A stretch of 37,559 bases of DNA from Candidatus Aenigmatarchaeota archaeon (GCA_017609145.1 JAFCEM010000001.1:1-37559); one strand, 5' to 3'. Positions 4,323 to 37,559 are shown, counted from the first letter of the stretch. The notes: generated from the sequence alone by a model not told the origin. Translations and numbers: made by a program.

Positions 4323-4397
4323 ATATAATAATTACCGATTTTAATAAAATAAGAATTTTCGGTGCAATGATGCAAAACGCTAATAAGGACTGACAGA

Positions 4398-5645
4398 ATG
4401 GTTACGGTTGAGTGTCTGGGGAGTGGAAGGGAGGTAGGAAGGTCCGCAATCTCGGTGGTGTCGGGAAATGACAAATTCATACTTGATTACGGGCTTGATG
4501 TGCAGGACATGAGTGTGCCGATGAACCCCGGTAGGGACATAAAAGGCGTGTTCCTTTCACATGCGCACCTTGACCACTCAGGGCATGCCCCGAACCTTTA
4601 CAGGCAGGGCTACGCGAACAGTATCTATGCAACACCCACAACATTCGGCCTTACCTCATTACTGCTCAGGGATTCGATAAAGGTGCAGGAAAGAAAGGGC
4701 ATTCAGCCGCTTTTCATGCTTCCGGACCTGAAAAAAATGGAGCGCATGAAGAAAATACTGGACATAGGCAGGAGCGTAAAGCTTGGCGGCACGACCATAA
4801 GCTTCTTTGATGCAGGTCACGTTCCCGGAAGCTGTATGACTTTGATTGAAATCGACGGAAAGAGGATACTCTACACAGGAGACGTGAAATTCATAGATAC
4901 ATACCTTATGAAGGCAGGCCATACGGACTTCCGTGACATAGATGTGCTGATAACAGAATCAACATATTCGTACAAAAATCACCCGGATCGGGGCATGCTG
5001 GCAGACAAGCTCAGGGAAATAGCTCAACACACTGTTTATAATAACGGCACACTGCTTCTGCCAGCGTTTGCAGTCGGCAGGACACAGGAACTTCTCATAA
5101 TGCTTTATGACCTTGGTTTTGAGATTTATCTTGATGGGATGGGCATAGCAGCGAGCAGGATAATCATGGGTTTCCCGAAAAGCGTGAGAAGCCCAAAGAA
5201 GCTGGAGAAGGCCTTTGGCACGGCGCGCAAAATAAGGAACCAAAGACAAAGAGAAAACGCAGTCAAAAAACCCTGCATAATAATAACAACATCCGGTATG
5301 CTCAATGGCGGCCCCGTTGGTTTTTACGTGCCCCAATTACACAAGAGGGAGGACTGCACAATGGTGATGAGCGGCTATCAGGTCGAGGGTACGGTCGGAA
5401 GGAAGCTTCTCGATACTGGCAGATACGTGAATGAAGGCCTTGACCTGAAGCTGAAAATGAAGACGGAATTCATGGACCTCAGCGCACACTGCGGCAGGGA
5501 CGGGATAATAAACTTCATAAAGAAAACAAAACCCAAAAAAACGGTCCTTGTTCATGGGGACAGGACAGTGGAATTCGCCAAAGAACTGAAAGGCATGGGA
5601 TTCGATGCCGTTGCCCCGAAGAACGGGGACAAGATAGCCGTTTAG
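4398..5645 (+). CDS. Metallo-beta-lactamase / beta-CASP family ribonuclease (aCPSF2 / RNase J-like)
   Basis: 415 aa. It has the MBL motif SHAHLDHSG, then DAGHVPGS, the beta-CASP region ...ESTYS... and a C-terminal VHGD. Confidence 0.8.
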   Translation: MVTVECLGSGREVGRSAISVVSGNDKFILDYGLDVQDMSVPMNPGRDIKGVFLSHAHLDHSGHAPNLYRQGYANSIYATPTTFGLTSLLLRDSIKVQERKGIQPLFMLPDLKKMERMKKILDIGRSVKLGGTTISFFDAGHVPGSCMTLIEIDGKRILYTGDVKFIDTYLMKAGHTDFRDIDVLITESTYSYKNHPDRGMLADKLREIAQHTVYNNGTLLLPAFAVGRTQELLIMLYDLGFEIYLDGMGIAASRIIMGFPKSVRSPKKLEKAFGTARKIRNQRQRENAVKKPCIIITTSGMLNGGPVGFYVPQLHKREDCTMVMSGYQVEGTVGRKLLDTGRYVNEGLDLKLKMKTEFMDLSAHCGRDGIINFIKKTKPKKTVLVHGDRTVEFAKELKGMGFDAVAPKNGDKIAV

Positions 5646-5905: not shown

Positions 5906-6664
5906 TTAAAAAGCTTGCAGTCCCATTGCGAAGAGCACTGCAATGAGTATGGGCTGGTGTATAAGGTATATTAGCAGTGAATGCCTCCCAAGGAAACAGA
6001 GCTGGCTTATCGGGGGTTTCGAGCGCTCCCATATCCTGAGCATGCGCCCGCCCGCGGGATACAATTTGTTGCCGAAGAATATCCCGATCAGCACGAGCCC
6101 GAACCATGGGAGCAGGGGGAAATAGTCAAGCGTGTAGAATGCTGCTGGCCTTAATCCGAGCCACATCAGCCACGGAAAACTGAATATGACGAGCTGCAGG
6201 CCAATACCGATGCAGATTAGCACTAATCCAAGCAAAAGATTAAGCCATGTCCTGCCCAGAAACGGCCGCGAGATTATTATGGCAATCCCTATGAAGTGCA
6301 GCACACCGAATATTATGAAACCATTCGGCAGGAAGAGCCATGTTGTCAGCGTTATTAGAAGCCCGTAGCCGAAAATCCTTAGCCCGCGAAGCAGGTATTT
6401 TCTGGTAAGCTGTTTTCCGGTCATTTTTTTTCTTGCCCTTGAATAGCTGAGTGTAAGAGAAACACCCACAAGGAAGATGAAAATTATTGCTGTTATCCTT
6501 GCAAACAGCCACCAGAAACCGGAATAGACATCAACAGAGAAGATGCCAAAATAGTTGAGGTCAAACATGAAATGAAAAACAATCATCATCAATATGGCAA
6601 TTCCGCGCAGGAAATCTATCTCCCAAAAACGTTTGTTTGGGGTTATGGCTGCTTTTTCTTCCAT
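5906..6664 (-). CDS. DUF1624 (heparan-alpha-glucosaminide N-acetyltransferase-like) integral membrane protein
   Basis: 252 aa. The N-terminus KRFWEIDFLRGIAILMMIVFHF is characteristic of DUF1624, and there are multiple predicted TM helices. Confidence 0.7.
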   Translation of the reverse strand: MEEKAAITPNKRFWEIDFLRGIAILMMIVFHFMFDLNYFGIFSVDVYSGFWWLFARITAIIFIFLVGVSLTLSYSRARKKMTGKQLTRKYLLRGLRIFGYGLLITLTTWLFLPNGFIIFGVLHFIGIAIIISRPFLGRTWLNLLLGLVLICIGIGLQLVIFSFPWLMWLGLRPAAFYTLDYFPLLPWFGLVLIGIFFGNKLYPAGGRMLRIWERSKPPISQLCFLGRHSLLIYLIHQPILIAVLFAMGLQAF

Positions 6665-6891
6665 ATGGTTTTGCCCTCCAGTCTAACCTCAACAACCCTG
6701 TGGAGAGGGATGAATGTTTCCTTTCCTTTATGCTCATATGTTAAATAGGATTTTTTGAGTTCTGTTACTTCACTACCTGTTATCGTCTTCCTGTCGTCTG
6801 GCGCTCCCTTGTGTAGAATTATAATTTCGCAGTCATTCAGTCTGTCTGTCCACTTCAGCATGGTGAGAATATTGTTTATGCCCGCAGCCAT
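6643..6891 (-). CDS. UPF0248 / DUF504 family small protein
   Basis: 82 aa. ...LKWTDRLNDCEIIILHKGAPDDRKTITGSEV...ETFIPLHRVVEVRLEGKTIWKK matches the DUF504 signature (W..., hRGAP..., IP.HRI). It overlaps the downstream gene by 22 nt. Confidence 0.75.
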   Translation of the reverse strand: MAAGINNILTMLKWTDRLNDCEIIILHKGAPDDRKTITGSEVTELKKSYLTYEHKGKETFIPLHRVVEVRLEGKTIWKKKQP

Positions 6892-7079
6892 ACTTATTTA
6901 TTCTGTTAAGTACATAATAACACGAATCAATTCTATGCAATGGTGGCTTTTGGTTTGCTTGTGGCAGTGGTCCTTGTTGCGGGTTGCACTGCACCAGCTG
7001 ACGGCGGCAACAATACCGGCGACGGAACCCCGAGTGCATTGACTTATACTATTGATTTTATTTTAAAGAGTCATGAGAA

Positions 7080-7151
7080 TGGACCAGGCGAGATTCGAAC
7101 TCGCAGCCTCCTGCATGCCGAGCAGGCGATCTACCATTGATCTACTGGCCC
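7080..7151 (-). tRNA. tRNA-Ala (anticodon GGC), no intron, no encoded CCA
   Basis: Reverse complement: GGGCCAG-TA-GATC-AATGGTA-GATC-G-CCTGC-TCGGCAT-GCAGG-AGGCT-GCGAG-TTCGAAT-CTCGC-CTGGTCC-A. This is a full cloverleaf with the G3:U70 alanine identity pair. The anticodon loop reads TC-GGC-AT, so position 33 is C, not U. Confidence 0.85.
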
Positions 7152-7152
7152 A

Positions 7153-7296
7153 TGGGCCGAGCCAGAATTGAACTGGCGATCTCCGCCTTGTAAGGGCGGC
7201 GTCATGCTTCTAGGAACCTCTTACAAGTTCTTTCCCGGGGTTTCTTGCGTAAGCCCTTGGGCTCCTGTAAGAAAGGCCTCACTAGACCACCGGCCC
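7153..7296 (-). tRNA. tRNA-Val (anticodon UAC) with an insert (intron) of about 69 nt in the D-loop
   Basis: Reverse complement starts GGGCCGG-TG-GTCT-AGTGAGGCC... and ends ...A-TGAC-G-CCGCC-CTTACAA-GGCGG-AGATC-GCCAG-TTCAATT-CTGGC-TCGGCCC-A. The acceptor, anticodon and T arms are perfect. The two D-stem halves (GTCT / TGAC) are separated by about 80 nt where 8-11 nt would be normal. Confidence 0.8.
7206..7274 (-). other. Putative non-canonical tRNA intron in the D-loop of tRNA-Val (boundaries approximate)
   Basis: Removing about 69 nt leaves the D-loop AGTGAGGCCA and a 75-nt tRNA. The insert contains a 7-bp helix TCTTACA/TGTAAGA (7266-7272 with 7219-7225), a GCCC-AA-GGGC hairpin and a CCCGGG palindrome. 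I could not place an exact bulge-helix-bulge by eye. Confidence 0.55.
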
Positions 7297-7320
7297 ATTT
7301 AAGATTTTAACTCAAAACAG

Positions 7321-7330
7321 ATTTATAAAT
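7321..7330 (-). promoter_or_regulatory. TATA-box candidate for the tRNA-Val/tRNA-Ala transcription unit
   Basis: ATTTATAAAT is centred about 29 nt upstream of the tRNA-Val 5' end (7296). tRNA-Ala follows tRNA-Val after a single nucleotide, so the two are probably one transcript. Confidence 0.45.
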
Positions 7331-7342
7331 GCGCCGACCGGG

Positions 7343-7497
7343 ATTTCCTCCCTGAGAGACTTACCCGGAATTATCATATTAACGGTTTGAACCGCTAATC
7401 TGCATGTTCTTTGGGTAAGCCTTAGCCTTTCTTCGAACACCCCTAATGCAAACGAGGATTCCCTGCTTGCGCAGGGGATGTTTTCGAAAGGCTCAGG
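7343..7497 (-). other. tRNA-Gly intron 3, 155 nt, within the T-loop/T-stem (boundary ambiguous over a few nt)
   Basis: The 5' T-stem strand and loop CCGGG-TTCGATT are separated from the matching CCCGG-TCGGCGC-A by 155 nt. The insert folds into long helices: AGCCTTTC/GAAAGGCT, CCCTGC-GCAA-GCAGGG and GGCTTACCC/GGGTAAGTC. Confidence 0.7.
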
Positions 7498-7519
7498 AAT
7501 CGAACCCGGGTCTCCACCG

Positions 7520-7537
7520 AACTGCTCGGCAACCGAA
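7520..7537 (-). other. tRNA-Gly intron 2, 18 nt, canonical 37/38 position with textbook bulge-helix-bulge
   Basis: Anticodon stem TCACC/GGTGG; 4-bp helix CTGC/GCAG; 5' bulge CA|T; intron helix TCGG/CCGA with TTG loop; 3' bulge TT|C. The intron sequence is TTCGGTTGCCGAGCAGTT. Confidence 0.85.
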
Positions 7538-7546
7538 TGGCAGGGT

Positions 7547-7561
7547 TCCGCGCGAATGCTT
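7547..7561 (-). other. tRNA-Gly intron 1, 15 nt, inside the 5' strand of the anticodon stem (about position 28/29 or 29/30)
   Basis: The 5' stem strand TCACC pairs with GGTGG only after AAGCATTCGCGCGGA is removed. The boundary can slide by 1 nt because of flanking A residues. I could not draw a clean BHB. Confidence 0.6.
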
Positions 7562-7589
7562 GACGTCCTACCGCTAGACTATCGGCGCA

Positions 7590-7718
7590 TTAGGCTTCTT
7601 CGCCTTTTTTCAGTTTCTTTACGTTAGTGCTCCTGCATTTGGGACAAAGCCTCGTCGCCGGCTCCATGAAAATGGGCTTTCCAACCCATCCGCAGTTCTC
7701 GCACTTGTATTTTGCCAT
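7590..7718 (-). CDS. Small zinc-ribbon protein (CxxC...CxxC), 42 aa
   Basis: Too short for the ORF track. Reverse-strand ATG at 7716-7718 and TAA at 7590-7592: MAKYKCENCGWVGKPIFMEPATRLCPKCRSTNVKKLKKGEEA. There are two CxxC knuckles, and the gene fits exactly between SRP54 and tRNA-Gly. Confidence 0.5.
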   Translation of the reverse strand: MAKYKCENCGWVGKPIFMEPATRLCPKCRSTNVKKLKKGEEA

Positions 7719-7736
7719 ATACTAATAAGAAAAACT

Positions 7737-7749
7737 GATATATTTAAAT
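7737..7749 (-). promoter_or_regulatory. TATA-box candidate for a leaderless zinc-ribbon mRNA
   Basis: On the reverse strand, TTTAAATATATC is centred about 26 nt upstream of the ATG at 7718 and lies immediately after the SRP54 stop. Confidence 0.4.
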
Positions 7750-9093
7750 CTAAATCCCGCTCAGGCCGAAATGCTTTGCCAATTTTGCAAGCGGCCCACG
7801 CCTGAAGCCCTTTCCGCCCTTCGTGAGCTTCATTACCTTCTGCATCTGCTTGTAGTATTTGAGCAGCTCACGCACAGCAGACTCTGACGTGCCAGAGCCT
7901 CTGGCTATTCGCTTGACCCTGCCTGCTTTTATTATCTCTGGAGTCTCCCTCTCTTTCGGTGTCATGCTATCGATTATGTACTTCCATTTCTTCATCTTGT
8001 CTTCTTGGACATCGAGGAGCCCCTTGGGTATCTTCATACCCGAAACACCCGGTATCATGTCCATAACCTTGGACAGCGAGCCCATCTTCTGCATTGAGCC
8101 AATCTGCTCCTGGAAATCAACCATTGTGAACTTGCCCTCAAGAAGCCGTTTTGCCTTGTCTTCGTCCGGCTCTATGCCAGCGCTCTTTGCCTTCTCAAGG
8201 AGCCCCTGCAGGTCGCCGTACCCTATCATCCTTGAAACGAACCTTTTCGGGTCATAGCTTTCCATATCCTCGGGCTTCTCGCCCGTTCCGATGAACTTGA
8301 CTGTTGCGCCTGAAACACTCGCTGCTGCAAGCGCGCCGCCACCTCTTGCCGTGCCGTCGAGTTTGGTAACAACGATGCCTGTTATGCCGACAAGCTTGTT
8401 GAACTCCTCTGCCTGCTTTCTGGCTGTCTGGCCTATGTCTGCCGGAATCACAAGTAGCACCTCGTCAGGCTTGATTACCTTCCCGAGATTCTTCAGCTCC
8501 CTAGCAAGCTCTTTATCCAGAGCATCTCTTCCTGCGGAATCGAAAATCAGAACCTCTTCCTTTGCATCGCGTAGCGCATTCTTTGCTATGTCCTCGGGCT
8601 TCCTGCCCTTTACGTAAACATTCACACCAACCTTCCTCCCGACCTGCTTAAGCTGTGCCTGGGCGGCTGCCCTGTGGGTGTCGCATGCCACGAGCGCTGG
8701 ATTGACACCTCTTGTCTTGAACCATTTCCCTATCTTCCCTGCACTGGTTGTCTTTCCAGAACCGAAAAGCCCTATGAGCATTACCTTCTGTGGCTTGAGC
8801 GCCACCTCACCCTTGCGGGCTCCAAGGAAACCCACCATCTCATCGTAGAGCATCTTTACGAAATATTCTTTCAGTGTAAGCCCTGCGGGTGGCTTTGCCC
8901 CAAGTATTTTCTTCTTTATCTTCTCTGACAGCTCGGCAACCATCTCCACATCCACGTCTGCCTGAAGAAGTACCCTCTGCAGGTCTTTTACTATGGTCTC
9001 GACCGCCTTCCTGTCGACCACGCTAAGACCCGCTATCTTCCTGAATGTCTGCTTTAGTGATTTTCCAAAGTCCATGTAATCTTTATGTAGCAT
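7750..9093 (-). CDS. srp54: Signal recognition particle protein SRP54
   Basis: 447 aa. It has an N domain, the G domain GLFGSGKTTSAGK...DTHRAAA...DSAGR...TKLDG, and a Met-rich M domain (SMQKMGSLSKVMDMIPG). The second Met (ATG at 9075, MDFGKSL...) gives a more canonical N-terminus and lies about 24 nt from a TTTATTTAAA box at 9094-9103. Confidence 0.93.
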   Translation of the reverse strand: MLHKDYMDFGKSLKQTFRKIAGLSVVDRKAVETIVKDLQRVLLQADVDVEMVAELSEKIKKKILGAKPPAGLTLKEYFVKMLYDEMVGFLGARKGEVALKPQKVMLIGLFGSGKTTSAGKIGKWFKTRGVNPALVACDTHRAAAQAQLKQVGRKVGVNVYVKGRKPEDIAKNALRDAKEEVLIFDSAGRDALDKELARELKNLGKVIKPDEVLLVIPADIGQTARKQAEEFNKLVGITGIVVTKLDGTARGGGALAAASVSGATVKFIGTGEKPEDMESYDPKRFVSRMIGYGDLQGLLEKAKSAGIEPDEDKAKRLLEGKFTMVDFQEQIGSMQKMGSLSKVMDMIPGVSGMKIPKGLLDVQEDKMKKWKYIIDSMTPKERETPEIIKAGRVKRIARGSGTSESAVRELLKYYKQMQKVMKLTKGGKGFRRGPLAKLAKHFGLSGI

Positions 9094-26926: not shown

Positions 26927-28570
26927 TCAGTAATCATTCATCCCGCCTCCGGGGGGAGGCGTCGGGCCGCTTTCTTCCGCCTTGCCCGCGGATATCACGT
27001 CGTCTATCCTCAGTATCATCTCAGCTGCCTCTTCGGCAGACTTAATAGCCTGGAGCTTTATCTTGAGAGGCTCGATAACTCCTGACTTCAGCATGTCCTT
27101 GGTATCGCCAGATACCACGTCCAGGCCGAACGATTTGCCACCTTTTTCGTGCTCTGATATGAGAGCAGTAAGCTTGTCAATCGGATCAAGCCCAGCATTC
27201 TCGGCAAGGCTTCTCGGGATGGATTCTATGGCATCGGCGAACGCGTTTATTGCAAGCTGCTCCTTTCCACTGAAGGTCTCGGCAAACTTCCTCACATTCT
27301 TTGAGACCTCGATTTCGGGAGCCCCGCCTCCAGGGACGAATTTCCCAAGTTCCAGAGTAGCCGAAACGTCCTTGATAGCATCCTGTAAAGCGCGCTCCAC
27401 CTCGTCGACGACGTGCTCTGTGCCACCCCTGACAAGTATGGTCACTGCCTTGGGCTTTTTGCATTTCTCCACGAAAACCATCTCGTCACCTGCGATCTTC
27501 TTTTCATAGACAAGCCCCGCATACCCGAGGTCTTCCTTTGACAACTCCTTGATGTTACTGACTATTTTGGCTCCAGTGGATTTTGAGAGGGCCTTCATGT
27601 CAGATTCACTGGCTCTCCTGATAGCGAGTATCCCGGCCTTCGCGAGATAGTGTTGTGGGAGGTCGTCTATGCCCTTCTGGCAGAAAAGCACATTTGCGCC
27701 GGAGTCTATAACTTTCTGGGCCATGTCCTTAAGGGACCTCTCCTCCGCGTCCAGGAAAGACTGCAACTTCTCCGGTGTGTCAATGTCAATCTTGGAATCT
27801 ATCTCTGTCTTCTTGATCTCGAACTCAGAATTAACCAGAGCAATCCTTGCGTTCTCCACCCTCTTCGGCATGGCGGAGTGCACAACCTCCTTATCAATGA
27901 CCACACCCTCCACGAGTTCGGTGTCGCTTATGGAACCTCCCTGTTTCTTCTTTATCCTTATGTCCAATGCGTCAACCGAAACCTTGCCATCCTTTGCTTC
28001 GGCGACCATTTTTACGGCTTTCACAGCGACTGCGGCAAGCTCCTTGGACGCCTTCTCAGCAGACTTCCCTGTCATGGCAGTCCCCGCAATCTGCTCAAGC
28101 TTTTCATCATCATCGACAGAAACATCAATCCCCATTTCCTGGAGAATCTGAATGGATTTCTCTTTCGCCGCCCTGTAACCCTTGGTTATTACAGTCGGGT
28201 GTATGTTCTGGGCAATGAGTTCTCCGGCATTCTTAAGTAGCTCCCCGGCTATTACGACGGCTGTGGTTGTCCCGTCGCCAACCTCCTCGTCCTGGGTCTT
28301 GGCGACCTCGACCATCATCTTCGCCGCCGGATGCTCAATCTGCATCTGGTCAAGTATGGTGGCCCCGTCGTTTGTTATGACTATGTCGCCAATGGAATCG
28401 ATAAGCATCTTGTCCATGCCTTTCGGGCCAAGCGTTGTCCTGACGGCATCGGCGACCGCCTTTGCCGCTGCTATATTGTTTCCCTGCGCATCCCTTCCCC
28501 TGCTGCGCATGGCACTCTCCGACAATATGAATATTGGCTGTGCTCCCAGCTGAGCAACCTTGTTCGACAT
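26927..28570 (-). CDS. ths: Thermosome subunit (group II chaperonin)
   Basis: 547 aa. It has [31 protein letters not shown] and VPGGGAPE, with a G/P-rich C-terminus. A GGAGGTG Shine-Dalgarno at 28576-28582 overlaps the stop codon of the upstream regulator gene. Confidence 0.95.
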
Positions 28571-28581
28571 GAAACCACCTC

Positions 28582-28998
28582 CTAAATAATATCTCTTTTT
28601 TCCCTTACAGGAAGCATGAATTCCCTGTCAATATCTTCCGCTATCTCCCTAATGGACTTCATCACCCTTTCCAGATCAAGTTCAATCTCGTCCACAACCT
28701 TCCGGAGACTCCTCATCCTGAGTTCGAACATTCCATCTTCCTTTATAATAAGACCTGAGTTTATCATTGTCTTGATATGGTGTATGACTGCGGTCCTGCT
28801 GACGTTTACCTTCTCTGAAAGATCTTCTGCGCTTATGCCGCTGTTCTTTGCCTTTAGTATGCTCTTGAATATTTTCAGGCCTGTCTTTTCTTTATCCCTT
28901 TTACCCAAAAGGCCCAAAGAGCTGCAGAACCATTCAATATCGTTTTCCATATCTTTTTCAACGGGCTGTCTCAAAGAACGTACTGTTATCTGTTTCAT
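28582..28998 (-). CDS. Winged helix-turn-helix transcriptional regulator (candidate heat-shock regulator)
   Basis: 138 aa. [36 protein letters not shown] is an ArsR/MarR-like wHTH. It lies 11 nt upstream of the thermosome gene and divergent from hsp20. Confidence 0.65.
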
Positions 28999-29266
28999 GA
29001 TAATATATTGGAGCGTAATCTTTAAATATTTTAACTATTAATATAATATCTGAAATAGTCAGTAAATATCCAAAATGTGCATGTGAGTAGTGCATTATGT
29101 ATGAATGTCGACTGTAATAACACTCCTAGGGCGTTCGTACATAAACAAATACCCGTAGATGCTGCAGGAAAGGAGGCCAAACCCCTCTGGAGGTTATCCA
29201 GCTTAAGATGTTGGTCTTGGCGGCCTGTAGTACGTTTCTCAGGAATGTAAAACAGGAGGATTGCTT

Positions 29267-29290
29267 TCAGGTGTTTGGTTATTCACCTGA
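29267..29290 (+). promoter_or_regulatory. Perfect 7-bp hairpin or inverted repeat upstream of hsp20
   Basis: TCAGGTG-tttggttatt-CACCTGA lies about 50 nt upstream of the hsp20 ATG and just upstream of its GGAGGTG SD (29326-29332). A second partner, TCTCAGG (29237-29243), can pair with CCTGAGA (29286-29292). Confidence 0.3.
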
Positions 29291-29339
29291 GACAGCTTTG
29301 GCGTCGCGGGTATGATTTAAAATATGGAGGTGGATTGAA

Positions 29340-29816
29340 ATGGCAAAAAAATGGAGCATTTGGAACGAGATGAGAGAGATACAGAACCAGATGGATAATC
29401 TGTTCGGCAGGTTCTTCGGTCAGCAGCCTCTGACAACAGGCCTTTTGCCTGGACCAGAAACCTCTTTGGCTGATAAGGATTTCAGGCAACCACTCGCCGA
29501 CGTGATTGACAAGAAAGATGAAATCGTAGCAAAGATAGAGATGCCCGGCATTGACAAGAAAGACATCGAGATAAACCTAACCGAGGATGGCATCGAGATA
29601 AAGGCCGAAAAAAAAGAGGAGTACAAAGAAGAGGATAAGAAGACCGGAAGGCACAGGTTCGAGAGAAGCTATGCCGGCTTTTACAGGTATTTCGGCCTCC
29701 CGAAAGGCGTGGACATAGATAAAGTAGAGGCGACATGCAGGAACGGCATCCTTGAGCTGAGGATCCCGAAAAAAGAGGGCCATAAGGAGAAAGTGAAGAA
29801 GATAGAGGTCAGGTAA
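29340..29816 (+). CDS. hsp20: Small heat-shock protein, Hsp20/alpha-crystallin family
   Basis: 158 aa. It has the alpha-crystallin domain PLADVIDKKDEIVAKIEMPGIDKKDIEINLTEDGIEIKAE...ERSYAGFYRYFGLPKGVDIDKVEATCRNGILELRIPK. Confidence 0.92.
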   Translation: MAKKWSIWNEMREIQNQMDNLFGRFFGQQPLTTGLLPGPETSLADKDFRQPLADVIDKKDEIVAKIEMPGIDKKDIEINLTEDGIEIKAEKKEEYKEEDKKTGRHRFERSYAGFYRYFGLPKGVDIDKVEATCRNGILELRIPKKEGHKEKVKKIEVR

Positions 29817-29858
29817 TCACGTTGGTAGTATATCTACCAATTATTGTTATGTGGTCAG

Positions 29859-30377
29859 ATGAAAAGGAAGCAGAAAACAGGAAAAGAAAACTATCGCATA
29901 AAGAAGGAGCTTGAGGAGAAGTCTAAGCTTGCGGATGAAAGGCTGAGCCAGATAAGATACCTGCAGGCTGACTTTGATAATTACAAGAAGAATTTGGACA
30001 AACAGAGAGTTCAGTTCGAAACAACTGCCAACCAGAGGCTGATAACCAAATTGCTGCCTATTATAGACGACTTGGAGGCGGCTGTGGAGAAGTCAGGCAA
30101 CAAAGAGGCGCAGGAAGGCTACAGTATCATACTCAGGAAGCTATTGGATGTGCTGTTAAAAAGCGGTCTCAAACCAATAGAGTCGGTTGGGAAGAAATTC
30201 GACCCGTATTACCACGAAGCCATTATGAGCACGGAATCTGACAAGTCTGAAGGAACCGTGCTGGAGGAACTGCAGAAGGGATATATGTTCCATTCGAACG
30301 TCATAAGGCATTCGAAAGTCAAAGTGGCAAAAAATAAAAAACCTAAACATAAAAAAGGATATGATGATCATGGGTGA
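29859..30377 (+). CDS. grpE: Nucleotide exchange factor GrpE
   Basis: 172 aa from the ATG at 29859 (the track ORF starts at a TTG at 29844). It has [11 protein letters not shown], ...LLPIIDDLE... and [12 protein letters not shown]...[16 protein letters not shown]. Confidence 0.9.
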
Positions 30378-32310
30378 AGAAAAAGAAACTAAGAAAGAGA
30401 AGATAATCGGGATAGACCTCGGGACTTCAAACTCCCAGGCAGCGGTAATCATAGGAGGGAAGCCGACAATAATCCCGTCGGCTGAGGGAGCCACGGTAGC
30501 GGGAAAGATGTTCCCTTCTGTTGTGGCATTCACGAAGGACGGGCAGATACTGGTAGGAGAACCTGCGAGAAGGCAGGCCGTCTCAAACACAGAAGGCACT
30601 GTGATGGGCGCCAAGAGGAAGATGGGAAAAGATTTCAAGTACAATATCCGCGGCAAGGAGTACACCCCCCAGCAGATTTCCGCATTCATACTCCAGAAGA
30701 TAAAGAGGGACGCCGAGGACTTTATTGGAGAGAAAGTCAGCAAAGCAGTCATTACAGTCCCTGCCTATTTTGATGACAACCAGAGGACCGCAACAAAGGA
30801 TGCCGGCAGGATTGCTGGCCTGGACGTGGTGAGGCTTGTCAATGAGCCAACGGCAGCAGCCATGGCTTATGGAATAAACAAAAAGGGTGAGGAGCATAAG
30901 ATAATGGTTTTCGATTTCGGGGGCGGTACACTCGATGTAACCATAATGGAATACGGCGACGGAACTTTCACCGTGCTCTCCACATCAGGCGACACCCAGC
31001 TCGGTGGAAGGGATATGGACGAGGCCCTCATGAAATATATTATCGATGACTTTAAGTCAAGGGAAGACTTTGACATCAACAACGACGATATGGCCATGCA
31101 GAGAGTAAGGGAAGCTGCAGAAAAGGCAAAGATAGAGCTTTCCACGACATTGGACACTGACATAAACATTCCTTACATAACATCCACGGACAAGGGACCG
31201 AAACACCTCAACATGAAGATAACAAGGTCTCAGATGGAAAAGCTCGTCATGCCCATAATAGAGAAATGCAGGTACCCGATGGAGCAGGCCATAAAGGACG
31301 CTAAGCTTAGCAAAGATAAAATTGACAAGATCATAATGGTGGGCGGGCCCACGAGGATGCCTGCCGTGCGCAAATTTGTCGAGGACTTCGTTGGGAAGAA
31401 AGTCGAGGGTGGGGTCGACCCCATGGAGTGCGTCGCTTTGGGGGCTGCAATACAGGGTGGCGTGCTTGCCGGGGATGTCAAGGACATAGTCCTGCTCGAT
31501 GTTACCCCGTTGACATTGGGAATTGAGACGCTTGGCGAGGTCATGACACCGCTTATAGACAGGAATACGACCATACCTGTCAAGAAAAAGAAAACGTTCT
31601 CCACTGCAGCGGACTACCAGTCAGCGGTCACGATCCATGTCCTCCAGGGAGAGAGGAGCATGGCAAAGGACAACACAAGCCTCGGAAAATTCAACCTTGA
31701 AGGCATACCTCCGGCACCGAGGGGAATACCTCAGATAGAGGTCACGTTCGACATAGACGCGTCAGGAATACTCAATGTTTCTGCAAAAGACCTGGGAACA
31801 GGGAAGGAGCAGAAGATCACAATCACGGCCTCCACAAAGTTGTCTGACGATGAAATAGAGAAGATGGTGCAGGACGCAAAGGAACACGAGGAAGAAGACA
31901 AAAGGAATAAGGAGGAGGCAGAGGCAAGAAACAATGCTGACACGCTTGTCTACACTACCGAGAAGACACTTTCAGAGATAGGGGATAAGATATCAAAAGA
32001 GCAGAAGGAGAAAATAGAGAAATCAATGAAAGAGCTGAAAGAGGCGCTTTCCGGCAGCGACATAGAAAAAATCAAAAAGGAATCCGAGAACCTGCAGAAG
32101 GTCGTGGGGGAGGCAGGGGCATCCATCTATCAGGAAGCCATGAAAAAACAGGCCGAAGACGCTGCAAAGAGAGCTGCCGAGGGCAAAAAGGAAGAAAATA
32201 CCGAAGACGAAAAACCCGGGAAAAAAAGGTCAAGTGACGAGAAAGTGGTTGACGCCGAATACGAGGTAAAGAACGATGGGAAGAAGAAAAAGAGCAAGGG
32301 GGAGAAGTAA
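30361..32310 (+). CDS. dnaK: Molecular chaperone DnaK (Hsp70)
   Basis: 649 aa. It has [19 protein letters not shown]-like [18 protein letters not shown] and [12 protein letters not shown], with a K/E-rich tail. The start overlaps the grpE stop, and alternative ATGs are at 30364 and 30370. Confidence 0.95.
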
Positions 32311-32347
32311 TTCTTTCGGAGAAAATGAAAGGCACAGGGTTGATTAG

Positions 32348-33337
32348 ATGCATGACAGTGAAATAAAAGAACTTAACAAAAAATCCGAAGCGTATTCAAA
32401 AGAAACAGAAAAGATACTTGCAGAATTAAAAAGAGTGATAGTAGGCCAAGACTACGTCATGGAAAGGGTCCTCATGGCGTTGATTGCTGACGGCCACGTG
32501 CTTATAGAAGGGATGCCAGGCCTTGCCAAGACCCTTATGATAAGCACGCTTTCCAAGACAATGGACACCGCGTTCAGGAGAATACAGTTCACCCCCGACA
32601 TGTTGCCTGCTGATATAATAGGGACAAAGATATACAACCATAATACAGGGAACTTTACCACAAAAAGGGGGCCAGTATTCACCAACTTCATTCTTGCGGA
32701 CGAAATAAACAGGGCACCTCCCAAGGTTCAGAGCGCGCTTCTCGAGGCCATGCAGGAAAGACAGGTAACGATATCGGGCGAGACATACCCTCTTGAAAAA
32801 CCGTTCCTCGTTTTGGCCACACAAAACCCCATAGAGACCGAAGGGACTTACAGGCTTCCTGAAGCCCAGGTTGACAGGTTCATGTTCAAGCTGCTCATGG
32901 GATACCCAGAACACCACGAAGAGGTTGAAATAGTCAACAGGATGACCGAAGGCAAAAACCCGTCTGTGAGCATGGCCATTTCAAGGCGGAAGATACTGGA
33001 ACTGCAGGGCTTCTGCCCTAAGATATACGCTGACGAGAAAATCAAGAATTATGCGGCTTCGCTTGTTCATGCCACACGAAAGCCCGAGGAATACGGACTT
33101 GACCTTAATGGTCTGATCGAATACGGGGCGTCTCCCAGGGCGTCAATATGGCTGATTCTCGGAGGCAAAGCCCATGCCCTGATAAACGGAAGGGGTTATG
33201 TCAAGCCGGAGGATATCAAGGCGATAGCACCAGATGTCCTAAGACACAGGGTGATGCTGACCTACGAAGCCGAGGCAGAAGAGATGACGCCCGACAATGT
33301 GATAGAAAAGGTAGTGAAGGCTGTCAGAATTCCTTAG
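32348..33337 (+). CDS. moxR: MoxR-family AAA+ ATPase
   Basis: 329 aa. It has Walker A EGMPGLAKT, RIQFTPDMLPADIIG, Walker B ILADEINRAPPKVQSALLEAMQE and ATQNPIE.EGTY.LPEAQ.DRF. Confidence 0.92.
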   Translation: MHDSEIKELNKKSEAYSKETEKILAELKRVIVGQDYVMERVLMALIADGHVLIEGMPGLAKTLMISTLSKTMDTAFRRIQFTPDMLPADIIGTKIYNHNTGNFTTKRGPVFTNFILADEINRAPPKVQSALLEAMQERQVTISGETYPLEKPFLVLATQNPIETEGTYRLPEAQVDRFMFKLLMGYPEHHEEVEIVNRMTEGKNPSVSMAISRRKILELQGFCPKIYADEKIKNYAASLVHATRKPEEYGLDLNGLIEYGASPRASIWLILGGKAHALINGRGYVKPEDIKAIAPDVLRHRVMLTYEAEAEEMTPDNVIEKVVKAVRIP

Positions 33338-33363
33338 ATGTTTCTTCAGCGGAGACATTGAAC

Positions 33364-34254
33364 ATGACTGAGGCAAGAGATTTGCTTAGGAGAATCAGAA
33401 GGATTGAAATAAAAACAAGGGGTCTTGTCGAGGGCCTGATGCAGGGAGCGTATTACTCCATATTCAAGGGAAGGGGCATCGAATTCTCGGAGGTCAGGGA
33501 ATACCAGTACGGGGATGACATAAGGACGATAGACTGGAACGTTACAGCTCGCATGAACCACCCGTTCGTAAAGGAATTCGTTGAGGAGAGGGACCTGACT
33601 GTGATGATATTTTTTGACGTTTCAGGTTCCATAGATTTCGGCACCCAGGACATGCTGAAAAAGGAGGCCGCTGTCGAGCTGATAGCGAGCATCGCCTTCT
33701 CCGCGGTACGGAACAACGACAGAGTGGGGCTGCTTCTCGCGACAAACAGGATTGAGAAATACATAGCCCCCAGAAAAGGCAAGAGACACGCAATGAGGAT
33801 AATCAGAGAGATGCTGTACTACGAGCCAAAGGAGAGGGGAACAGACCTTGAAAAAACACTCACTCACCTCTCGAAAGTCATGAAAAGGAGGGGAGTGATA
33901 TTCATAGTATCTGATTTCATGGACAGCATGGATAAGCTGGAAAAGCCGATAAGGATACTAAGGAAAAAGCATGACATGATAGCCATAAGGATATCCGACT
34001 TGAGAGAGTCTGAAATCCCTGACGTAGGTCAAGTTGAGCTTGAGGACGGAGAAACGGGCGAGTGTATGACAATAGATACCTCTGATCCAGATTTCAGGAA
34101 TAACTTTTCCAGGCTCGTATCCGAAAGGGACGAAAAGTTCAGGAAATTCATGAAGTCCAACAGGATGGATTTCATACAGATACCGGCTTCCGGTGAATGG
34201 GGAAAAGCCGCTGTCAAGTTTTTTAGGGAAAGGGCAAGGAGGTGCGGGGTATGA
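33364..34254 (+). CDS. DUF58 domain protein (MoxR-associated, VWA-like)
   Basis: 296 aa from the ATG at 33364. It has ...FKGRGIEFSEVREYQYGDDIRTIDWNVTAR...FVKEFVEERDLTVMIFFDVSGS. The longer track ORF (from 33148) overlaps moxR out of frame and is rejected. Confidence 0.85.
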   Translation: MTEARDLLRRIRRIEIKTRGLVEGLMQGAYYSIFKGRGIEFSEVREYQYGDDIRTIDWNVTARMNHPFVKEFVEERDLTVMIFFDVSGSIDFGTQDMLKKEAAVELIASIAFSAVRNNDRVGLLLATNRIEKYIAPRKGKRHAMRIIREMLYYEPKERGTDLEKTLTHLSKVMKRRGVIFIVSDFMDSMDKLEKPIRILRKKHDMIAIRISDLRESEIPDVGQVELEDGETGECMTIDTSDPDFRNNFSRLVSERDEKFRKFMKSNRMDFIQIPASGEWGKAAVKFFRERARRCGV

Positions 34255-35198
34255 ACTTCGCAAACCCTCTTTGGTTTCTTGCCATGGCATTGGTGCCTTT
34301 GTTGGTCTATTTCTACCTGCTGGCGCAGAGGAAAAAGAAAAAACTCACTCTCAGGTTCAGTTCTCTAAACCTCCTGAAGAAGGCGGTGGGAAAGAAAAAA
34401 ACAGTGGACAGAGACAAAGTGCTTTTTGTTTTGGTTCTTGCCATATTCGCTTTGATGATAACCGCTTTAGCCGACCCTCACATACCACTCGAACAGACAA
34501 AGGAAGGCGCAAACATAGTGCTTGCCATAGACGTCTCCGGCTCCATGCAGGCGACAGACTACAAGCCGAACAGAGTGGAGGCTGCTAAACAGTCATCGGA
34601 ACTGCTCATAAACCAGCTGAATCCGGGCGACCTTGTGGGCATTGTGATATTCTCGGACGGCGCGACAACGTCATCTTACCTTACCCCGCTTAAGCAGAAG
34701 GCCATCGAAAAGCTCAAGTCGATCCAGGCCAAGGAGGGGGCGACCGCAATAGGTGACGGGCTTTCGCTTGCGATAGACATGGCGATATCCATTCCGAGCA
34801 AGAAGAATGTCGTCATACTTCTTTCGGATGGTGTGAACAACGCCGGTGTGGTATCTCCAGAAGAGGCAATACAGTTCGCTAAAACGAACAACATACAGGT
34901 ATATACAGTAGGTATGGGTTCCGAGGAGCCAGTACTGCTCGGTTATGACTTCTTCGGCAGGCCGCAGTATGCTGAACTCGACGAGGCGACCTTGAAGAAT
35001 ATAGCAGAGAGCACGGGAGGGGAATATTTCAAGTCAGTTAACGAGAAAACCCTGGCCGACATATATTCAAAGCTTCCGGAAAAGATAGAGAGGGAGCTTG
35101 AGGATACTTCCATAAAGGACTGGTTCATACTGGCGGCGATTGTGGTGTTTTCAGTATGGATATACCTCAAATACTGGAGGTTCAGGTCGCTCCCCTGA
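34251..35198 (+). CDS. batA: VWA domain membrane protein, BatA-like
   Basis: 315 aa from the ATG at 34251, which lies 6 nt after the GGAGGTG at 34238-34244. It has MNFANPLWFLAMALVPLLVYFY, the MIDAS motif AIDVSGSMQATDYKPNRVEAAK and a C-terminal TM segment. It overlaps the DUF58 stop by 4 nt. Confidence 0.88.
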   Translation: MNFANPLWFLAMALVPLLVYFYLLAQRKKKKLTLRFSSLNLLKKAVGKKKTVDRDKVLFVLVLAIFALMITALADPHIPLEQTKEGANIVLAIDVSGSMQATDYKPNRVEAAKQSSELLINQLNPGDLVGIVIFSDGATTSSYLTPLKQKAIEKLKSIQAKEGATAIGDGLSLAIDMAISIPSKKNVVILLSDGVNNAGVVSPEEAIQFAKTNNIQVYTVGMGSEEPVLLGYDFFGRPQYAELDEATLKNIAESTGGEYFKSVNEKTLADIYSKLPEKIERELEDTSIKDWFILAAIVVFSVWIYLKYWRFRSLP

Positions 35199-35208
35199 GG
35201 TGATGCTT

Positions 35209-36783
35209 ATGAATAAAAAAACATTGATTTCCCTGTTGCTCTGCATGGTATGGGTAATCGTTTTTGCGGAAAGTGCCTTTGCCGCCCAGCTGGTCGTGGA
35301 AAAGGACGTGGCTACCCGTGACATAGCAGTCGGGGACGGCATTGAGATAATGCTCAGGTTCTCAAACCCCTTCGGAAAGCCTGTTAGGATACAGATACAG
35401 GACAAGAATGTGATTGCCGGGAACGGCCTTGACATCCAGTGTTTCGAATACACATTACCAACTGATGCATCAAGCACAATTTCGTACAGCCAGAAGATAA
35501 CCGCCTTCCAGTCCGGCGACTTCACCCTCGGAAAGGCAACGATTACATATACTAACCCTGAAACTGGCAAGGAGGAGCAGGTCCAGTCAAACGACCTGAA
35601 TCTGGAAGTGAAGCAGTCCCAGACTCAGCAAAACCTCCAGCAACAGGGGATAACAACTGTTTACCAGTGCGGGGGGGTGAGCATGACTTCCACTTCGTAT
35701 TCCTCAAGCGGCTCTTCCACAAACATCCAGATAAGCAGCGGATTCAACCAGAATCCCGGTCAGCAACAGAGCCAGAGCCCCGATAACATCCAGCAGCAGA
35801 GCCAGGACATAGGCACCATAAAACAGCAGATGCAGAAGCAAATGGAGGAGGAAGAGAGGAACAGGGAACGCCTTGAAAGCATAATCAACCAGAGCGAACA
35901 GTTCCGAGAAGCCGAGGAGCAGATCCTGAAAGACGGGTATCAGCCTGATACAAAGTCCATAAACCCGGATTCGAGTTCATCGGGCTCCTTCAAATATGCA
36001 TACAAAAAAGAAAACGGTGACACAGCGGAAATAAGCGGAAAGGTAGCCGACAATGAAATAACCGAACTAAGAAAATGGAGCAGGGAGGATGCGGAGAGGC
36101 TCGCCGAACTTCTTGAGAACAGCACGGAGTTCAGGCGGCTGCACCAACAGTTAACCAGCCAGGGATACAACATAAGCTCGAAGCTGTTCACTGAGCCGGA
36201 AGAAAACATATCGGATTTTGACTACGGATACGAGAAACCGGAATCTTTGGAAAAATCCATAGCTGGTAACATCACGCTTACGGGGAACATAATCTCAATA
36301 GGCATACAAGGAGAGGACGACACGTACTCATGGTGGGTTGTGCCCGTAATCCTGCTGACAACTTTGCTGGCTTTAATGATTTACAGGAAATATTTGAGGA
36401 AGGAGAAACCTGTGGCAGGAGAGGTTAAAAATGTGGTGAACACCATTGATTTCCGCAAAGATGCATTAAAAATGATCGAAGAGGCCGAAAGCATGTTTTC
36501 CAAGGGGATGACAAATGAGGCCTATACCAAGGTTTCGGAAGGTGTGAGGCACTATTTCAAGCACGTGCTGAATTCGGGAAAGGAGGAGCTGACGAGCACG
36601 GACATACTGAAGAAGATAAAAGATAAAGCCAATTATAAAGAAGCTAGGGAATGCTTCGAACTGTGCGACCTTGTGAAATTCGCCAAATACAAACCCAACA
36701 GAAAGGATTTCATGGAAGCTGTCAAAAAAGGCAAGGGGCTGGTTATAGCTCATGACATCAAAGCAGATAAGCAAATTTATTGA
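35209..36783 (+). CDS. BatD-like / oxygen-tolerance-family membrane protein with Q/S-rich linker and DUF4381-like cytoplasmic tail
   Basis: 524 aa from the ATG at 35209, which lies 6 nt after the GAGGTG at 35197-35202. It has the signal peptide MNKKTLISLLLCMVWVIVFAESAFA, a beta-rich CARDB/DUF11-like domain, a Q/S low-complexity segment, a coiled coil, the TM segment WWVVPVILLTTLLALMIY and a helical tail (...ELTSTDILKKI...CDLVKFAKYKP). Confidence 0.6.
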   Translation: MNKKTLISLLLCMVWVIVFAESAFAAQLVVEKDVATRDIAVGDGIEIMLRFSNPFGKPVRIQIQDKNVIAGNGLDIQCFEYTLPTDASSTISYSQKITAFQSGDFTLGKATITYTNPETGKEEQVQSNDLNLEVKQSQTQQNLQQQGITTVYQCGGVSMTSTSYSSSGSSTNIQISSGFNQNPGQQQSQSPDNIQQQSQDIGTIKQQMQKQMEEEERNRERLESIINQSEQFREAEEQILKDGYQPDTKSINPDSSSSGSFKYAYKKENGDTAEISGKVADNEITELRKWSREDAERLAELLENSTEFRRLHQQLTSQGYNISSKLFTEPEENISDFDYGYEKPESLEKSIAGNITLTGNIISIGIQGEDDTYSWWVVPVILLTTLLALMIYRKYLRKEKPVAGEVKNVVNTIDFRKDALKMIEEAESMFSKGMTNEAYTKVSEGVRHYFKHVLNSGKEELTSTDILKKIKDKANYKEARECFELCDLVKFAKYKPNRKDFMEAVKKGKGLVIAHDIKADKQIY

Positions 36784-36965
36784 TGTCCTTGTTCGCTACG
36801 TGTGTATAAATTTGTGTGGTTTTCAAATCCTTATACCTGCTTTTCAATAAATTACGTGAAAAGATTCGGTACATTCCGCTTCGCTTCATTTCCAAAAAAT
36901 TTTTAAATGGGAAGTTAAATTTATGAATATTTAAACAACAAAATTTCTATCTTAGAGAGGTTAGC

Positions 36966-37559
36966 ATGGCAGAGAAAGACTATTACAAGATATTGGGAGT
37001 GAACAGGGACGCTTCTGAAGAGGAGATCAAGCGCGCATTCAGGCAACTTGCCAGGAAATGGCATCCCGACGTCAACCCAGGGAACAAGGACGCAGAGGAG
37101 AAATTCAAGGAGATAAACGAGGCGTTTGAGGTTCTGAAAGACCCTGAGAAAAGGTCTGCTTACGACCAGTTCGGTCATGCAGGGCTTGAGGGGGCGGGAT
37201 TCAAGCCCGAAGGCAGGGGATTCCCGAGCTTTGACGAGCTTTTCAGGAACTTCGGTTTCGGTGACATTTTCGATGTCTTTTCGGGCTTTGGTGAGAGGAA
37301 GAGGCGCTCATACGGACCTGAGCGGGGTGCTGACCTGAAATACGAATTCGAGATATCGCTCGAAGATGCTTATCATGGGCTTGAGACCGAGATAGACGTC
37401 CCGAGGTTCGAGAAATGCTCGGTATGCGGCGGCAGCGGGGCAAAGCCAGGCACCAAGCCGAAGAGATGCCCCAAGTGTGGCGGCACGGGAGAGATACGCG
37501 TTGTAAGGCGCAACGCTTTCATGCAGACCATGAACATATCTCCCTGCGATAGGTGTGGT
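36966..37559 (+). CDS. dnaJ: Co-chaperone DnaJ (Hsp40), N-terminal 198 aa; continues beyond the window
   Basis: Not in the ORF track because it has no stop in the window. The ATG at 36966 follows GAGAGGT: [71 protein letters not shown]... This is a J domain with HPD, followed by a G/F region and then the zinc-finger repeats CSVCGGSG and CPKCGGTG. Confidence 0.93.

Follow-up and report, generated by a model that had tools for sequence, protein, structure and literature searches.

What does it mean that a complete MoxR cassette lies between dnaK and dnaJ, within the Hsp70 locus of an archaeon? This question is raised by a 37,559-nt stretch of DNA from Candidatus Aenigmatarchaeota archaeon (GCA_017609145.1, JAFCEM010000001.1:1-37559), referred to below as the window, in which hsp20, grpE and dnaK are followed by genes for a MoxR AAA+ ATPase, a DUF58 protein, a BatA-type protein with a VWA domain and a BatD-like membrane protein, and dnaJ comes after these (Table 1). 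The original prediction, made from this sequence alone, had described the four genes as a complete module on the same strand as dnaK and dnaJ, and the open reading frame (ORF) list and Pfam scan bore this out. The Hsp70-locus components grpE, dnaK and dnaJ are all present on one strand, dnaK and dnaJ are separated by 4.6 kb of non-Hsp70 genes, and every cassette and Hsp70 gene is intact on the plus strand, except that dnaJ is cut by the window end. The successive junctions from dnaK to dnaJ measure 37, 26, -4, 10 and 182 nt, the lengths originally given, which depend on ATG starts at 34251 for batA and 35209 for the BatD-like gene.

The nested arrangement is real and locally conserved, and is apparently undescribed. 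A doubt raised at the outset, that the adjacency might be unique to this contig, was settled by a neighbourhood survey that found it in at least four lineages. The author of the prediction knew of no description of the arrangement, and we also found no paper reporting it: a literature search of incomplete coverage returned no report of a MoxR cassette in an Hsp70 locus, and a 2026 survey of the archaeal DnaK-DnaJ-GrpE system makes no mention of MoxR. The explanation we favour, with confidence a little better than even, is that an intact and widespread archaeal cassette became nested in an ancestor, was trimmed, and came to be read through from the Hsp70 genes, so that the link between the two would be one of shared stress-time expression.

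Conservation of the nested cassette

Loci related to the window were collected in a DnaK scan of one genome per GTDB species, of which the best 80 of 242 loci were examined (numbered here with an L), and the cassette was mapped by tblastn. Taxon names of the relatives are the NCBI labels on the public records, the nearest DnaK loci being labelled 'uncultured archaeon' or 'Candidatus Aenigmatarchaeota'. The cassette was located downstream of dnaK in L002, whose DnaK is 89% identical to that of the window, and in L010 (DnaK 78%), where dnaJ then follows. The same nested order was present in L161, L163 and L176, which are independent assemblies of the L002 population, while L172 represents a further lineage, in which batA and the BatD-like gene are followed by dnaJ after an 18-nt gap. 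The nested cassette is consequently known from at least four lineages (the window, L002/L161/L163/L176, L172 and L010), and its order is kept down to identities of 78% for DnaK and 57% for the BatD-like protein. Because independent assemblies of related organisms carry the nested order, the nesting is not an assembly accident. One candidate for an additional lineage, P0096, was rejected, as it is 99.98% identical to L161 and represents the same population.

The form of the insertion differed among these lineages. Between dnaK and dnaJ of L002/L161/L163/L176 and L010 there is a seven-gene unit, with the overall order dnaK, five-transmembrane (5-TM) protein, HTH_45, moxR, Lon_C, DUF58, batA, batD-like, dnaJ. 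Of the three extra genes, the first two encode a 228-aa 5-TM protein without a Pfam match (TM228) and a protein of 87 aa resembling HTH_45/Sso10a. The third, between moxR and DUF58, encodes a Lon_C (S16) protease of 257-260 aa with a TM anchor, which has a GPSAG serine motif, a GGILEKAK lysine motif and no ATPase domain. The seven-gene unit occupies the same dnaK-dnaJ position as the window cassette, but its conserved post-dnaK spacer is absent in the window, and the 5-TM, HTH_45 and Lon_C genes were not found anywhere in the window. Identities between the window proteins and those of the seven-gene form were 72-86% for MoxR, 77-84% for DUF58, 78-85% for BatA and 57-73% for the BatD-like protein. 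In L161, groES-groEL-hsp20-grpE lie ahead of this cluster. In a neighbour-joining (NJ) tree the modules of WIN (the window), L002 and L173 formed one clade with 100% bootstrap.

Lon_C genes were also observed near the cassette elsewhere, inside the L081 cassette and 5-8 kb away in Methanoperedens (L165) and Nanoarchaeota (L170), and Lon_C alone lies between dnaK and dnaJ in L005. Judged by these neighbourhoods, the association of MoxR with Lon_C is a recurrent one.

The four-gene cassette also occurs by itself, in Methanoperedens (L165-167), Nanoarchaeota (L170/171) and the archaea L164 and L174, which argues against a dedicated link to Hsp70. These stand-alone cassettes have the same gene order and short or overlapping junctions, are flanked by ABC transporter, ribosomal protein, HtrA or gatB genes, and encode proteins with identities to those of the window of 64-79% (MoxR), 58-72% (BatA) and 39-48% (BatD-like); L174 (MoxR 79%) follows gatB, and the MoxR of L164 is 75% identical. 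The cassette of L173, which is the closest to that of the window and has a MoxR 87% identical to it, lies away from dnaK, beside genes for an IS240-family transposase and a glycosyltransferase. In the L005 genome, where Lon_C is the only gene between dnaK and dnaJ, the DUF58, batA and batD-like genes are on another contig of the same assembly (L168, GCA_964501515.1), with a partial moxR at the contig end ahead of DUF58. As a separate observation, the transposase of L173 is of the DDE type, and the spacer between its gene and moxR contains a perfect inverted repeat, CACATTCCACTGCTTTAAAGCAGTGGAATGT; it is possible that this transposase was the agent of cassette relocation.

Sister loci with 82-88% DnaK identity (L001, L003, L004 and L007) have dnaK and dnaJ adjacent, a second point against a dedicated Hsp70 link, and no cassette remnant was found in the 338-nt dnaK-dnaJ spacer of L001. 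In metagenomes, 0 of 80 MoxR loci adjoined dnaK or dnaJ among the matches listed, which were mostly ordinary bacterial and archaeal Bat-type operons of 51-66% identity.

The window retains much of a canonical grpE-dnaK-dnaJ locus such as that of Methanosarcina, with hsp20, grpE and dnaK on a single strand, dnaJ after them and a divergent winged-helix-turn-helix (wHTH) gene, and it departs from it in the 4.6-kb insert. The premise of the original prediction, that grpE, dnaK and dnaJ are usually contiguous, held in part. Where dnaK was followed by a same-strand dnaJ, 34 of the 61 loci had a gap of less than 300 nt and the other 27 a gap of at least 300 nt, the sizes being approximate as they were taken from tblastn ends. 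Most of the 27 large gaps hold at least one ORF, and their contents are unrelated: 11 loci have an HD-domain gene, two Altiarchaeota-labelled loci have methyltransferase-like ORFs, and L008 and L038 have multi-gene insertions of 5-6 kb. The dnaK-dnaJ interval is evidently a permissive insertion site in related archaea, which likewise weakens a dedicated Hsp70 link and calls for caution in reading function from adjacency there. The HD-type gene encodes about 150-195 aa and its 11 Methanosarcinales- or Woesearchaeota-labelled loci (L048, L049, L054, L055, L056, L059-L062, L064 and L073) were grouped by BLASTP; the HD domain itself (PF01966) was seen in L073, the sole member of the 11 that was scanned.

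Table 1. Features of the window and of corresponding loci in relatives. Coordinates refer to the window unless another locus is named.
Feature	Coordinates	Strand	Match or remark
RuBisCO large-subunit homologue	3060-4322	-	RuBisCO_large 1.6e-94
Thermosome gene	26927-28570	-	11 nt downstream of winged-helix regulator gene
Winged-helix regulator gene	28582-28998	-	HTH_24/HTH_11/TrmB matches; divergent from hsp20
Conserved non-coding element	29160-29305	+	5' region of chaperone operon, ahead of hsp20
hsp20 (small heat-shock protein)	29340-29816	+	Pfam HSP20 2.6e-21; opens same-strand cluster
grpE	29844-30377	+	Pfam GrpE 1.2e-38; 17-nt overlap with dnaK
dnaK (Hsp70)	30361-32310	+	Pfam HSP70 3.9e-222
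dnaK-moxR spacer	32311-32347	+	37 nt
moxR	32348-33337	+	AAA_3 5.3e-66, AAA_lid_2 7e-20
DUF58 gene	33364-34254	+	DUF58 1.4e-78, VWA_2 2.5e-12
batA	34251-35198	+	BatA N-terminal domain 5.9e-13, VWA 2.2e-21
BatD-like gene (524-aa membrane protein)	35209-36783	+	Sub-threshold BatD, TRAP_beta and DUF4381 matches; AlphaFold2 model
Spacer, batD-like to dnaJ	36784-36965	+	182 nt
dnaJ, 5' part only (J domain and start of Zn finger)	36966-37559, ends at window edge	+	DnaJ 2.9e-30, DnaJ_CXXCXGXG 4.9e-9
Part of seven-gene unit with 5-TM, HTH_45 and Lon_C genes	L002 11323-14057; L161 5382-8116; L010 12089-14824
dnaK-to-TM228 spacer	L161 5210-5381; L010 11906-12088		About 173-183 nt
groES-groEL in relatives	L161 94-1988; L002 ~6100-7884; L007 ~3530-5321		Cpn10 and Cpn60 Pfam
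Copies of conserved non-coding element	L007 3296-3450; L002 5873-6024; L005 8796-8947; L161 1-83
IS240-family DDE transposase gene	L173 1377-1964	-	309 nt upstream of moxR

The cassette proteins and the Bat operon

The MoxR protein has intact Walker A (GMPGLAKT) and Walker B (FILADE) motifs, and its AAA_3 match covers the full model and is joined by a C-terminal AAA lid, as in a single AAA+ module. It matched PDB entry 2R44 with an E-value of 1.6e-106 over residues 5-328; this entry was deposited as 'Uncharacterized protein' and is presumably the MoxR-proper (MRP) type MoxR of Cytophaga hutchinsonii. The gene context is also that of the MRP type, with DUF58 26 nt downstream of moxR and batA overlapping DUF58 by 4 nt. 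By domain content and context the window MoxR is an MRP-type AAA+ ATPase, its activity being predicted. A look-up of this MoxR by exact sequence gave no record, and the window proteins have a name in no source. The DUF58 protein is VWA-like and has a DVSGS motif of the metal ion-dependent adhesion site (MIDAS) type; a sequence search found no solved-structure relative of it. Hydropathy analysis identified no TM segment in either protein, and both are predicted to be cytoplasmic, with DUF58 as the predicted partner of MoxR.

The BatA-type protein consists of an N-terminal double-TM 'BatA' domain (Pfam PF07584, 49.5 bits, cut-off 25.9; TIGR02226 two_anch, 32.3 bits, cut-off 23.05), a VWA domain (77 bits) with a DVSGS MIDAS motif, and a C-terminal TM segment, and it gave sub-cutoff matches to Leptospira BatA/PRK13685. 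Its TM segments were placed by hydropathy at residues 4-22, 60-78 and 291-309, and the loop between the first two is lysine/arginine-rich. Based on the positive-inside rule applied to this loop, and on analogy with BB0173, a BatA-like protein of Borrelia whose VWA domain was shown experimentally to face the periplasm (PMC5700661), the VWA/MIDAS domain is predicted to face the outside of the cell.

The last protein of the cassette is more divergent. Its match to Pfam BatD (PF13584) was 17.4 bits, below the cut-off of 24.1, and the matches among 37 homologues of the family were likewise all sub-threshold, to BatD in 18 of the 37 (counted at E<=0.1, the best being 1.1e-6), to TRAP_beta in 21 and to DUF4381 in eight. 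The family has 92 detectable members, which by their given names are nearly all archaeal (Aenigmatarchaeota, Methanoperedens/Methanosarcinales and Nanoarchaeota). Hydropathy indicated an N-terminal signal or TM helix and a second TM segment at residues 374-392. The AlphaFold2 (AF2) model, with a predicted local distance difference test (pLDDT) score of 84, has a beta-sandwich ectodomain, a disordered Q/S-rich linker and a helical segment, after which come two alpha/beta repeats, a TM helix and a C-terminal helical bundle. In a Foldseek search of this model the beta-sandwich was the one part that matched, to TRAP-beta and macroglobulin-type domains. The label 'BatD-like' used in the original prediction is fair but weak: the family matches and the beta-sandwich speak for a resemblance, and the Pfam score falls short of demonstrated membership. 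We infer that the protein is bitopic and comprises a BatD-type ectodomain joined to a DUF4381-like TM segment and tail, with the beta-sandwich predicted to lie outside and the helical domain in the cytoplasm.

Among the closest known systems is the Bat operon (Bacteroides aerotolerance; also Leptospira, Borrelia, Francisella and Riemerella), which has the order moxR-DUF58-(DUF4381)-batA-batB-batC-batD-batE. Like this operon, the window cassette begins with an MRP-type MoxR gene, followed by DUF58 and then by a BatA with a double-TM N-terminus, VWA/MIDAS domain and C-terminal TM segment, and it includes a protein with a BatD-like beta-sandwich. Unlike the Bat operon, it has no BatB, there being a single VWA membrane protein, and no tetratricopeptide repeat (TPR) proteins BatC and BatE; the Pfam scan detected neither a second VWA membrane protein nor a TPR match among the four genes between dnaK and dnaJ. 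Further differences are that the last gene resembles a fusion of a BatD ectodomain with a DUF4381-like TM segment and tail (both Pfam models being sub-threshold), that the host is archaeal, and that the cassette is nested in an Hsp70 locus. The stand-alone archaeal moxR-DUF58-batA-batD-like operon has the same four genes in the same order as the window and differs in not adjoining dnaK or dnaJ. By gene content and order the window cassette is an archaeal relative of the bacterial Bat operon in reduced form, and it is the same as the common stand-alone archaeal operon. The bacterial systems are tied to stress tolerance, heat included: both heat and oxidative stress induce the bat operon of Riemerella, where deletion of moxR lowers heat survival (PMC11834572).

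Spacers, regulation and flanking features

The question of whether the cassette is expressed with the Hsp70 genes turns on the spacers. A scan for sigma-70 promoters and intrinsic terminators, which is not informative for an archaeon, gave counts near the shuffle expectation, and AT-rich boxes were compared manually instead. In the 37-nt dnaK-moxR spacer of the window no hairpin, inverted repeat or AT-rich TATA-like box was found. The 3' portion of this spacer (about 33 nt) is homologous only to the moxR-proximal leader of L173, where an AT-rich box, TTTAATTTTTAATATA, lies upstream of moxR; in the window the place of this box is taken by the 3' end of dnaK. L173 and the window also have a common moxR-DUF58 junction without Lon_C, which suggests that the reduction to four genes took place in the line they share. 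As moxR starts 37 nt behind dnaK and no promoter box is recognisable there, read-through transcription of hsp20-grpE-dnaK-moxR-DUF58-batA-batD is likely in the window, and co-expression of the cassette with the heat-shock genes is likewise likely in this genome.

The seven-gene form gave a different picture. Its dnaK-to-TM228 spacer is better conserved between L161 and L010 than the proteins on either side. Immediately past the dnaK stop it contains a GC hairpin with compensatory differences, and it has blocks common to L161 and L010 (ATATTTAAG, TTGTGAAAC and TTTTTTAA) and a near-palindrome, GGAACATTGTTYCATA (also given as GGAACATTGTTCC). Together with the HTH_45 gene, this spacer looks like a candidate terminator followed by a dedicated promoter/operator. 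Because of its own hairpin, promoter/operator-like boxes and HTH_45 gene, the seven-gene unit is probably regulated independently of dnaK, which argues against a dedicated Hsp70 link. The co-regulation with heat-shock genes that had been proposed at the outset is thus compatible with the window spacer, which has no AT-rich box, but is not what the seven-gene form points to.

The 182-nt spacer ahead of dnaJ in the window contains T-rich tracts past the stop of the batD-like gene, together with AT-rich boxes that look promoter-like (AAAAAATTTTTAAATG and ATATTTAAA), the first of which also occurs in L161 and L010. A box of the form AAAAA(T/C)TTAAATG, about 45-65 nt ahead of the ATG, is common to the window, L161 and L010, and for this reason dnaJ of the window probably has its own promoter. 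In L172, where dnaJ follows after 18 nt, and in L005, where it starts about 5 nt past Lon_C, dnaJ must on the sequence be co-transcribed with the upstream gene. The regions upstream of hsp20 and dnaJ, compared for a shared operator, had nothing but generic TATA-like words in common.

At the head of the chaperone cluster there is a conserved non-coding element of about 130-150 nt, just upstream of the first gene, which is hsp20 or groES. The window and L007 copies are 80% identical over 177 nt, with diverged flanks. Predicted long-range helices (GGCCAAAC/GUUUGGYY and UGGAGGU/GCYUUCA) and a small covarying hairpin make up its fold; in the consensus 98% of cells were paired and five pairs had two-sided changes, although these come from only four distinct sequences, such that the covariation support is thin. 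The element had no Rfam match at gathering or permissive thresholds, and a covariance-model search found no copy before moxR or dnaJ, leaving the single copy at the cluster head. The element is probably structured, and is a candidate for a 5' leader, possibly thermometer-like, or for a small RNA. The hsp20 gene that follows has a Shine-Dalgarno-like GGAGGTG 6 nt ahead of its ATG.

Several observations concern the surroundings of the locus. In many loci labelled Methanosarcinales, Woesearchaeota or Aenigmatarchaeota, a homologue of the winged-helix regulator lies upstream of grpE/hsp20 in divergent orientation, which suggests that the regulator gene is a candidate conserved regulator of the archaeal Hsp70 locus. 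In close relatives a groES-groEL pair lies directly upstream of hsp20-grpE-dnaK, resulting in a long same-strand chaperone cluster; these genes are not at the corresponding position in the window. GC content is even across the window, with the cassette equal to its flanks, and the remainder is ordinary archaeal housekeeping chromosome, encoding diphthamide synthase, a RuBisCO-like protein, SRP54, aIF2 alpha and beta, GINS, primase, LeuRS, a Hel308-type helicase, FtsZ and the thermosome. The RuBisCO homologue, which lies amid these housekeeping genes, presumably belongs to the form III type reported in DPANN archaea.

Explanations for the nesting

The favoured explanation can be set out as a history and a mechanism. 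The cassette would have arrived in the dnaK-dnaJ interval in an ancestor of a narrow DPANN clade labelled Aenigmatarchaeota, the ancestral state being the seven-gene unit with its own terminator-like hairpin and promoter/operator-like region. Deletions in the window lineage would then have removed the 5-TM/HTH_45 pair and Lon_C, placing moxR just past dnaK such that the four genes are read through from the hsp20-grpE-dnaK transcript, while dnaJ would have kept its own promoter. From what is known of the protein families, a hexameric MoxR, with DUF58 as a cytoplasmic VWA-like adaptor, would spend ATP to remodel or assemble a membrane complex of BatA, with its outward MIDAS-bearing VWA domain, and the BatD-like protein, with its outward beta-sandwich and cytoplasmic helical tail. 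A MIDAS-dependent step is envisaged, in which MoxR would act through DUF58 and the cytoplasmic tail and have its effect on extracytoplasmic partners. The machine may serve, under stress, to mature envelope or membrane proteins or to control their quality. A working link between the cassette and Hsp70 is plausible, though unproven, and most likely consists in the expression of both at times of stress, which a permissive insertion site made possible; that the two are obligatory physical partners is less likely.

Several points weigh against this explanation. The direction of change, deletion in the window line as opposed to gain in the others, is itself inferred. The deep nodes of the NJ trees are weak and the placement of L010 varies by marker, and for this reason a single origin of the nesting rests mainly on the shared seven-gene order. 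Archaeal promoters can lie hidden within coding sequence, which bears on read-through deduced from spacing. Finally, the mechanism is drawn by analogy with other members of the protein families.

The most serious alternative is that the cassette landed once in an insertion-tolerant gap as a neutral hitch-hiker, functionally unrelated to Hsp70, and that any co-transcription in the window came about by chance through later deletions. This is a credible though clearly less probable account. It would fit well with the 27 of 61 dnaK-dnaJ gaps of 300 nt or more with mostly unrelated ORFs, the adjacent dnaK and dnaJ of the near relatives L001, L003, L004 and L007, the location of the cassette elsewhere in L173, L174, L164 and L168, the hairpin, promoter-like boxes and regulator of the seven-gene form, and the absence of dnaK or dnaJ beside any of the 80 metagenome MoxR loci among the matches listed. 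It explains less well that the order has been kept across lineages that have diverged to 78% (DnaK) and 57% (BatD-like) identity, that dnaJ junctions have been repeatedly tightened (to 18 nt in L172 and, in L005, where Lon_C precedes dnaJ, to about 5 nt), that the neighbourhood is dense in chaperone genes (groES-groEL-hsp20-grpE-dnaK in L161) and that bacterial Bat operons respond to heat (PMC11834572).

A bolder reading is that in this DPANN clade heat shock controls the cassette, which would act in the quality control or assembly of membrane and cell-surface proteins and cooperate with DnaK/DnaJ, with a surface-exposed Lon_C in the fuller form. The window would then represent the step at which loss of its own regulator and promoter put the cassette under an Hsp70 operon headed by a structured leader RNA not described before. 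We regard this reading as tentative and rather improbable as a whole.

A direct partnership, a stronger form of the functional link suggested in the original prediction, is unlikely in our view: DnaK/DnaJ and the MoxR/VWA machine in the membrane would act in physical contact, with membrane or secreted clients passed on between them, for instance, and selection for stoichiometric co-expression would account for the nesting. The nested order in at least four lineages, the position of dnaJ immediately past the cassette in L172 and the Lon_C protease of the fuller form, which suits a proteostasis theme, are as such a partnership would predict, but co-occurrence is limited to one narrow clade, the cassette lacks a neighbouring dnaK in Methanoperedens, Nanoarchaeota and close relatives, and sister genomes with adjacent dnaK and dnaJ have no cassette at the locus. 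An integrated mobile or defence island, in which a MoxR-vWA conflict system settled beside dnaK, is very improbable: a secondary MoxR match to the bpMoxR domain of MoxR-vWA-beta-propeller systems, the IS240-family transposase adjoining the L173 cassette and weak matches of Lon_C to BrxL and CRISPR-Lon models point towards it, but PADLOC was null for DUF58, BatA and the BatD-like protein (the best match being MoxR to DolB at 1.3e-4), the window has no beta-propeller, integrase or transposase gene, the cassette GC content equals that of its flanks, AAA_3 scores 220.9 bits against 43.9 for bpMoxR, and the cassette is kept as a core-like operon across archaeal orders, so that with PADLOC negative and the beta-propeller partner absent we rejected its identity as a defence system.

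The practical impact of these findings is limited, as the organisms are uncultured and the linkage is found within a narrow clade. Together with its relatives the window does provide a comparative series: a seven-gene form that has a regulator of its own, a four-gene form that is trimmed and joined directly to dnaK, and the stand-alone forms. MRP-type MoxR/VWA systems are very widespread, and a cassette of this type that has been drawn into an Hsp70 operon offers a concrete and cheap hypothesis, namely that it may be expressed at times of stress and may have a role in envelope proteostasis.

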